NCBI RefSeq assembly: GCF_057098645.1
Contig: NZ_CM169472.1
Direction: 5' to 3' (one strand)
DNA: 64,000 nt
Numbering within the stretch: the stretch's first letter is position 1; each line of letters begins with the position of its first letter. Below are positions 33,092 to 34,586 of this stretch, piece by piece. The position numbers were made by a program, and so were the translations under genes. The notes below the pieces were generated by a model. That model made no database searches and was not told where the DNA came from. It saw only the letters and a list, made by a program, of their open reading frames with translations.

Positions 33092-34586
33092 TCTTTCACA
33101 CATTATTGCCGCGGCATTCAATGAACCGCTGCTTCTGGAGCCCGCCTATGCGCGGGTTTTCTTTTGCGCGCTCGGGCGCGAGATGGGGGCAGCAAGTCTT
33201 TCGGTACCACAGCAGCAGGTACAGCTTGATGCTCCCGGAATGCTGGCTGAAACGGACGAGTACATGGCCGGAGGTAAACGACCGGCCCGTGTTTACCGGG
33301 TGGTGAACGGTATTGCTGTACTGCCGGTGACCGGCACGCTGGTGCACCGGCTGGGGGGTATGCGGCCATTTTCCGGAATGACAGGCTATGACGGCATTGT
33401 CGCCTGTCTTCAGCAGGCAATGGCGGATAGCCAGGTGCGGGGCGTACTGCTGGACATTGACAGTCCGGGCGGGCAGGCCGCCGGCGCGTTTGACTGCGCT
33501 GACATGATTTACCGCCTCCGTCAGCAGAAGCCGGTCTGGGCACTGTGCAATGACACGGCCTGTTCTGCAGCCATGCTGCTGGCGTCGGCCTGCTCCCGAC
33601 GGCTGGTTACCCAGACATCCCGTATCGGCTCCATTGGCGTGATGATGAGCCATGTCAGCTATGCCGGTCATCTGGCGCAGGCCGGTGTGGATATCACGCT
33701 GATTTACTCAGGGACGCACAAGGTGGATGGCAATCAGTTTGAAGCCTTACCGGCAGAGGTTCGCCAGGACATGCAGCAGCGCATTGATGCGGCGCGCCGG
33801 ATGTTTGCCGAAAAAGTGGCGATGTTTACCGGTCTGTCTGTTGATGCCGTCACGGGAACAGAGGCCGCCGTTTTTGAAGGTCAGTACGGCATTGATGCCG
33901 GGCTGGCGGATGAATTAGTCAATGCGTCGGATGCCATCAGTGTGATGGCCACGGCGCTGAACAGTAATGTCAGAGGAGGCACTATGCCGCAATTAACTGC
34001 AACGGAAGCCGCCGCGCAGGAGAACCAGCGAGTGATGGGGATCCTGACATGCCAGGAAGCGAAAGGACGTGAACAGCTTGCCACGATGCTGGCAGGACAA
34101 CAGGGCATGAGCGTTGAACAGGCCCGGGCGATTCTGGCCGCGGCGGCACCGCAGCAGCCGGTGGCATCCACGCAGAGTGAAGCCGATCGCATTATGGCGT
34201 GTGAAGAAGCGAACGGTCGTGAACAACTGGCGGCAACGCTGGCGGCGATGCCGGAGATGACGGTGGAAAAAGCCCGCCCGATCCTGGCTGCTTCACCGCA
34301 GGCGGATGCCGGACCCTCACTCCGTGATCAGATCATGGCACTGGATGAGGCAAAAGGGGCTGAGGCGCAGGCTGAACAGCTGGCTGCCTGCCCGGGAATG
34401 ACTGTGGAGAGCGCCCGGGCTGTGCTGGCTGCGGGATCAGGTAAGGCAGAACCGGTCTCTGCATCCACAACCGCCCTGTTTGAACGCATCATGGCGAACC
34501 ATTCACCGGCAGCGGTACAGGGTGGCGTGCCACAGACGTCAGCAGACGGTGATGCGGACGTGAAAATGCTCATGGCCATGCCATGA
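33081..34586 (+). CDS. C: Head maturation protease (gpC-like, S49/ClpP-type) with a C-terminal repeat-containing scaffold-like domain, 501 aa
   Basis: Track ORF; protease-like core (…GVLLDIDSPGG…) and three ~45-aa tandem repeats in the C-terminal third. Confidence 0.85.
   Translation: MRRNLSHIIAAAFNEPLLLEPAYARVFFCALGREMGAASLSVPQQQVQLDAPGMLAETDEYMAGGKRPARVYRVVNGIAVLPVTGTLVHRLGGMRPFSGMTGYDGIVACLQQAMADSQVRGVLLDIDSPGGQAAGAFDCADMIYRLRQQKPVWALCNDTACSAAMLLASACSRRLVTQTSRIGSIGVMMSHVSYAGHLAQAGVDITLIYSGTHKVDGNQFEALPAEVRQDMQQRIDAARRMFAEKVAMFTGLSVDAVTGTEAAVFEGQYGIDAGLADELVNASDAISVMATALNSNVRGGTMPQLTATEAAAQENQRVMGILTCQEAKGREQLATMLAGQQGMSVEQARAILAAAAPQQPVASTQSEADRIMACEEANGREQLAATLAAMPEMTVEKARPILAASPQADAGPSLRDQIMALDEAKGAEAQAEQLAACPGMTVESARAVLAAGSGKAEPVSASTTALFERIMANHSPAAVQGGVPQTSADGDADVKMLMAMP
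34030..34500 (+). repeat. Three imperfect in-frame tandem repeats (~140-150 bp each) inside gene C
   Basis: Peptide repeats (I)M..L.CQEAKGREQLATMLAG…SVEQARAILAAA / IMACEEANGREQLAATLAAMPEMTVEKARPILAAS / IMALDEAKGAEAQAEQLAACPGMTVESARAVLAAG. Confidence 0.7.

Follow-up and report, generated by a model that had tools for sequence, protein, structure and literature searches.

A triplicated, predicted helical module in the scaffold part of a phage 21-type prohead protease gene from a defective lambdoid prophage

The window analysed here, a stretch of 64,000 nucleotides (nt) from contig NZ_CM169472.1 (assembly GCF_057098645.1), contains a phage head-gene cluster in which an S49-family prohead protease with a C-terminal scaffold domain is encoded at 33081-34586 on the plus strand, the strand of all features of this gene described below unless stated otherwise. 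Three tandem repeat units in the scaffold part of this protein are the subject of this report. The gene codes for 501 amino acids (aa) from a GTG start that overlaps the end of the portal gene, and it lies in the order terminase large subunit, W-like head-tail joining gene, portal (PF05136), protease/scaffold, HDPD-type decoration protein (PF02924), and major capsid protein of the Phage_cap_E family (PF03864), its place being that of C/Nu3 in lambda. It is 98.6% identical in nucleotide sequence to gene 5 of phage 21 over the whole gene (GenBank M81255 and OL657228), and its product matches phrog_53, the PHROG family of head maturation proteases (E = 1.5e-227). On the strength of these matches and of its position, we assign it to the proteases of the phage 21 gene 5/6 type (i.e., the lambda C/Nu3 type) with a nested scaffold. 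Phage 21 has the same nested open reading frame (ORF), the same ribosome-binding site, and the three units at equal positions; the proteins differ by a few aa substitutions, and the window copy resides in a tail-less prophage riddled with insertion sequence (IS) elements, whereas phage 21 is a viable phage. The homologous S49 protease of lambda, gpC, is 56% identical to the window protein, and gpC/gpNu3 of lambda as well as gp5/gp6 of phi80 and N15 share with it the nested in-frame scaffold, the type of module described below, the conserved tail, and the order of the head genes.

Unit 1 (aa 317-357, RVMGILTCQEAKGREQLATMLAGQQGMSVEQARAILAAAAP) spans 34029-34151, unit 2 (aa 370-406, RIMACEEANGREQLAATLAAMPEMTVEKARPILAASP) spans 34188-34298, and unit 3 (aa 417-453, QIMALDEAKGAEAQAEQLAACPGMTVESARAVLAAGS) spans 34329-34439; all three are in frame, with a period of 150 nt from unit 1 to unit 2 and of 141 nt from unit 2 to unit 3. 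The units are separated by Pro/Gln/Ala/Ser-rich linkers that are predicted to be disordered (linker 1, aa 358-369, PQQPVASTQSEA, 34152-34187; linker 2, aa 407-416, 34299-34328) and are followed by a C-terminal tail (aa 454-501, 34440-34583) comprised of a predicted helix, TTALFERIMANH, and a disordered end. The original prediction, made from the sequence of this stretch, had placed three in-frame tandem repeats of about 140-150 bp at 34030-34500, in the scaffold-like C-terminal third of a head protease gene, and both the repeats and their location in what is a Nu3/gp6-type nested scaffold ORF are borne out. Local BLOSUM62 scores between units range from 87 to 101, as against 26-28 ± 5 in 2000 composition-preserving shuffles (z = 11.4-14.9). 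A hidden Markov model (HMM) built from single-unit homologues alone identifies three domains along this protein (E = 8e-22, 6e-17, and 2e-12 for units 1-3, respectively), and each of the PHROG scaffold profiles, which are single-copy, likewise matches it in three stretches. At the DNA level, the codon-aligned cores of the units are only 55-66% identical and exact matches between units extend over no more than 8-9 nt; Tandem Repeats Finder (TRF) reported no array over 33000-35500, and a DNA repeat finder returned only families of 12-22 nt, one of which (D1) reflects the unit period. Thus, the high nucleotide identity between neighbouring units that typifies a variable-number tandem repeat (VNTR) is lacking here. 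The triple repeat is confirmed: it keeps the reading frame and greatly exceeds chance expectation, being visible in the protein and nearly invisible in the DNA.

The repeat is already known from the phage 21 head-gene operon. The GenBank record M81255 ("Bacteriophage 21 head gene operon"), which also annotates the nested gene 6 with its ribosome-binding site, lists three repeat regions named "Tri1 box", "Tri box", and "Tri3 box", which it describes as "function unknown; putative". In window coordinates, they fall at 34051-34154, 34191-34301, and 34332-34445, overlapping units 1, 2, and 3, respectively, and the three boxes coincide with the three units defined by the HMM. In the literature searched we found neither a discussion of the Tri boxes nor the original paper on the phage 21 head genes, which is said to be by Smith and Feiss and to have appeared in Gene in 1993.

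The N-terminal part of the long product contains the peptidase S49 domain (PF01343, E = 1.1e-34; aa 146-293, 33516-33959), which in the AlphaFold model has a predicted local distance difference test (pLDDT) score above 90 and is matched by Foldseek to SppA (4kwb/3rst, E = 6e-18). Ser162 (33564-33566) and Lys214 (33720-33722) are invariant across an alignment of 100 homologues and, going by the S49 family, would constitute the catalytic dyad. Downstream of this domain, a Shine-Dalgarno motif, GAGGAGG (33973-33979), which we read from the sequence and which M81255 and OL657228 annotate as the gene 6 ribosome-binding site, is followed after a 4-nt spacer by an ATG at 33984. This ATG is in frame with gene 5 and opens a nested scaffold ORF of 200 aa (33984-34586), the equivalent of gene 6 of phage 21 and Nu3 of lambda. 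Phage 21 records annotate the nested coding sequence as 'gp6' or 'scaffolding protein', and the complete genome OL657228 names the two products capsid protease/scaffolding protein and scaffolding protein, equating them with C and Nu3 of lambda. With these signals in place, translation of a separate scaffold protein from the internal start at 33984 is predicted. Two other features of the database records concern the same gene. OL657228 annotates two 'CII binding sites' within gene 6 (2409-2422 and 2643-2656, corresponding to about 33989-34002 and 34223-34236 of the window, minus strand), which look like bare matches to the pattern TTGYNNNNNNTTGY inside a late gene. Further, 530-aa portal proteins, among them the cluster representative, share the 90%-identity cluster of the window protein, which looks like an artefact of clustering in the database that may stem from fused or overlapping gene calls.

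The full-length AlphaFold model, built from the 100-sequence alignment (mean pLDDT 83.5), has a disordered hinge at aa 300-306 (pLDDT <50), coinciding with the internal start, after which the first helix of unit 1 begins at aa 307 (nt 33999). Beyond the hinge come three helical modules split by stretches with pLDDT <50 at aa 362-365, 406-410, and 455-463, and then an extra helix at aa 463-474, with pLDDT again <50 from residue 474 through the disordered end. Unit 1 has three helices with pLDDT 92-96, and unit 3 scores 75-91. When unit 1 was modelled alone with its leading helix from 60 sequences, it formed a three-helix bundle with pLDDT 94; each unit is accordingly predicted by modelling to be a three-helix bundle. 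In BFVD, the unit model finds its best matches among S49 prohead proteases of other phages, at their C-termini (template-modelling score 0.80-0.86). Searches of Pfam returned no family matching the scaffold part of the window protein, and a profile search with a 43-aa unit alignment against an index of 5.8 billion proteins retrieved only 4 fragments from 158 candidates.

The same three units, in the same order and pairing one-to-one with those of the window protein, occur in STM2605 of the Salmonella prophage Gifsy-1, a gpC homologue, and in related Salmonella prophage proteins; identity in the scaffold part is about 53%, and the extreme C-terminus differs. Orthologous units of phage 21 and Gifsy-1 score 153, 146, and 109 against each other, as opposed to 84-111 for paralogous pairs. 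As orthologous units are closer to each other than paralogous ones, the triplication predates the split between phage 21 and Gifsy-1, with no concerted evolution since, and the repeats are indeed old, as had been surmised from their divergence. Unit 1, the closest to the single unit of lambda, has kept the "GIL" residues of the latter. Behind unit 3, the helix of the tail (ALFERIMANH) corresponds to the segment following the lambda unit (ALDRLMQ; family consensus L..AM) and resembles the start of a unit, and we infer that the units were produced by tandem duplication of a segment running from "C-x-E-A" to "R-I-M-A".

Across the relatives, the number of modules appears as a stable lineage trait of 1, 3, or 4 set against a nearly unchanged capsid protein. 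A single unit is found in lambda, phi80, and N15, and in 97 of the 149 listed representatives (50%-identity clusters) of the relatives of the window protein; the rest of this sample, apart from a three-unit form (P0093), are truncated or have a different C-terminus. Three units are present in Gifsy-1, P0093, and several Salmonella and other enterobacterial forms. Four units characterize a separate E. coli lineage (P0027/L094; 106 of 5426 complete E. coli genomes), a sister head-gene lineage exemplified by L094 (E. coli GCA_032727965.1, 330-1043), with the same module at the same gene position. Its units recur at an exact 46-aa period and are 63-78% identical in aa and 64-75% in nt sequence, with exact runs of up to 21 nt. 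Three-unit and four-unit lineages alike have a major capsid protein of 342 aa, with 84% identity between the two, and gpE of lambda is 61% identical to the window capsid protein with one gap. As the capsid protein keeps its length and remains this similar, no visible change in the shell protein tracks unit number. The original prediction had suggested that repeat number might tune capsid assembly, and this constancy gives that idea no backing.

Taken together, these observations make it likely that this region forms the scaffold half of a protease/scaffold gene of the phage 21 type, in which three three-helix modules of about 37-45 residues, derived from an ancient triplication, act as a multivalent scaffold. 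On this proposal, the long product would consist of the Ser/Lys protease of the S49 family, a flexible hinge, and the scaffold domain, while the internal ribosome-binding site and the ATG at 33984 would yield the scaffold alone. The module copies, which would go back to a tandem triplication before the divergence of E. coli phage 21 and Salmonella Gifsy-1, would be strung on disordered Pro/Gln/Ala linkers with the conserved tail after them. Each module would be a protein-binding unit facing the interior of the procapsid, with the three-module chain operating as a multivalent scaffold; at the C-terminus of the protease, the modules would bring the enzyme into the procapsid, where the scaffold would later be degraded. 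The scaffolding protein of phage P22 has a C-terminal helix-turn-helix which, flexibly tethered, binds the coat protein inside the procapsid. This offers a functional analogy, namely a small helical scaffold element on a flexible tether; however, we found no sequence or significant structural match between the two, and the P22 protein has a single domain of this kind and is not fused to a protease. The tandem three-helix-bundle binding modules of staphylococcal protein A are, likewise, a structural analogy only. The binding role, multivalency, expression, and proteolysis in this scheme are inferences. In lambda, contacts of Nu3 with E, C, B, and itself are reported (PMC3224144), and the overlap of C and Nu3 and the protease function of gpC are given in literature cited in PMC8508860. 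The role of the scaffold in prohead assembly and its protease-mediated removal are also known in lambda, according to PMC3224144 and references in PMC8508860. Because of the reported Nu3 contacts and this C/Nu3 literature, each unit is most likely a small binding element within the scaffold that would double as an address tag carrying the protease into the prohead.

A different reading would have unit 1 alone do the work, with units 2 and 3 being tolerated duplicates, at most a spacer taking the place of a low-complexity segment found in lambda. Most homologues do have a single unit, and in lambda, phi80, and N15 this unit is preceded by a low-complexity segment of about 55-70 aa, whereas phage 21 has a 15-aa leader; moreover, the four natural deletion alleles described below, one of them common, all hit unit 2. 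These points are countered by the pattern of selection. The ratio of nonsynonymous to synonymous substitution rates (dN/dS), computed over six E. coli alleles that are 92-99% identical and thus give 15 non-independent pairs, is 0.15, 0.21, and 0.16 for units 1-3, as compared with 0.13 for the protease domain and 0.32-0.33 for the linkers where computable (linker 1 has no synonymous differences and could not be evaluated). Units 2 and 3 are hence constrained about as strongly as unit 1 and more so than the linkers, which indicates that all three copies are under purifying selection. Three units have also been kept since before the E. coli and Salmonella phages split, and another lineage retains four well-conserved units. 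We therefore regard the redundancy of units 2 and 3 as rather improbable, and favor a multivalent scaffold in which all three modules participate.

Somewhat less probable still is that the region is a live tandem-repeat locus, in which recombination between units changes the length of the scaffold, tunes capsid assembly, and risks collapse of sequence assemblies. Copy number does differ between lineages (1, 3, and 4), and contraction alleles exist; a length variation of this kind rules out that homologues universally carry exactly three units. To gauge its extent within the phage 21 type, we searched a 741-bp region in 5426 complete E. coli genomes and obtained 1869 carriers, counting deletion alleles in complete genomes with 40-45-nt junction queries. 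About 97% of the carriers keep exactly three units, the full 741 bp is present in one piece in 58 of 60 E. coli records sampled across the whole ranking, and all of the best 80 IMG/VR loci, which are near-identical to the window gene in this part, encode the full 200 aa. The commonest variant, a 482-aa protein (L007), has a deletion of 57 bp (19 aa) inside unit 2, the junction of which is found in 56 of the 5426 genomes (about 3% of carriers); the exact protein is present on at least 1000 contigs. From the alignments, its junction would be formed by imperfect 8-nt direct repeats bounding the deletion, CTGGCGGC at 34227-34234 and CTGGCTGC at 34284-34291, which lie 57 nt apart. The second variant, of 451 aa, is an in-register fusion of units 1 and 2 that is 150 bp shorter and leaves two units. 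It was recovered from one complete genome, the closed clinical E. coli genome NZ_CP195488.1 (L096, 1481-2836), where the head cluster is otherwise intact. A sequence of the same architecture (L095) is identical to unit 1 as far as the pentamer GCCCG and to unit 2 thereafter, placing the crossover in a 5-nt microhomology present, 150 nt apart, at 34122-34126 in unit 1 and 34272-34276 in unit 2. Another two deletions in unit 2 (P0021 and P0016) are known from metagenome scaffolds only; their junctions had no match in the complete genomes, and they are unconfirmed and possibly assembly artefacts. Counting these two, the four natural deletion alleles found all hit unit 2. A 119-aa deletion on 26 contigs (P0092) was rejected as a unit-level contraction, its junction being out of register with the units.

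This record differs from that of a VNTR, in that copy-number polymorphism among close relatives is infrequent and the phage 21 type yielded no allele in which units had been gained. Since the units share no more than 9 identical bases, they do not provide a substrate for homologous recombination, and the junctions of 5-8 nt of microhomology point to illegitimate deletion instead of homologous exchange. That orthologous units have remained distinct, without concerted evolution, and that the capsid protein has a constant length across lineages with 1, 3, and 4 units both argue the same way. The earlier notion of a recombination substrate for expansion or contraction therefore survives in part, for rare contractions of 57 and 150 bp do occur, but as a live recombination substrate the array is weakly supported. 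Nor do the units share any k-mer-length identity capable of collapsing an assembly, contrary to what had been proposed of such repeats. Many database entries do read 'S49 family peptidase, partial' at contig ends; as a single carrier genome can have as many as 5 copies of the region, such breaks more likely stem from several similar prophages than from the Tri repeat. Finally, the possibility that the repeat is a chance likeness of alanine-rich helical low-complexity sequence, to which the richness of the region in Ala, Gln, and Glu and the lack of convincing hits from DNA repeat finders might lend color, is negligible and refuted by the shuffle z-scores, the threefold match of the independent single-unit HMM, and the retention of the same units in Gifsy-1.

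Several observations nonetheless weigh against the multivalent-scaffold proposal. The 19-aa deletion that is common in complete genomes and on contigs destroys two helices of unit 2, and the two-unit allele lies in a head cluster that is otherwise intact, so unit 2 may be dispensable. The dN/dS estimates come from the small, non-independent set of alleles noted above. A sequence search of the PDB with the scaffold module found no relative and no solved structure of the module. Lastly, the window copy is probably not in current use for making virions, as it belongs to a prophage without tail genes.

This prophage merits a brief account. E. coli O145 RM9872 has a prophage at att-lambda (ybhC-bio) that the window matches at 99-100% identity. 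The gene lies in a lambdoid prophage that is defective and occupies the bio (att-lambda) locus of E. coli. Past an FI-like gene, at 36484-36933 and downstream to about 38500, the tail genes from Z through most of J are missing, and lom and tail-fibre genes come immediately after a 149-aa ORF. The N-terminus of this ORF is presumably FII-like, and the equivalent ORF in the near-identical RM9872 is entered in RefSeq as 'phage tail tip domain-containing protein', partial. Because the tail genes are missing, the prophage is judged defective, and from its gene content it is very unlikely that the window copy builds virions by itself. The prophage is full of IS elements, with the segments 9576-10888, 21377-22196, and 24835-25340 matching IS3-family or IS629-like elements annotated in RM9872 (97-100% identity), and in that reference the lysis region is interrupted. 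After int/xis, 7.4 kb (2171-9575) have no counterpart in RM9872, which has an IS-associated deletion there, and the window prophage thereby keeps more of the early region. At 39259-40589, 1.3 kb stand in place of an nleH-cif effector region of about 3.7 kb in RM9872, and the flank on the espJ side (about 40590 onward) matches again, at 99.96%.

As a discovery, the triple repeat in this copy is of small value, being already annotated in M81255 and carried here by a near-identical gene in a decayed prophage. What is added is context, in that the Tri boxes would be, judging by the structural models, copies of a three-helix module that is conserved among S49 protease-scaffold proteins. We tentatively raise the further possibility that the module is a valency unit of lambda-family scaffolds, whose number sets the avidity of the scaffold for the shell, or the stoichiometry of packed scaffold and protease, and not capsid size. 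If so, the Tri boxes, so far labelled 'function unknown', would gain a role, and nature would have furnished a series of alleles against a nearly constant capsid protein, with 1 module in lambda, 2 in the hybrid allele, about 2.5 in the 482-aa allele, 3 in phage 21, and 4 in the L094 lineage. The natural lineages with 1, 3, and 4 units, together with the contraction alleles, constitute a ready series for testing module binding and scaffold valency.

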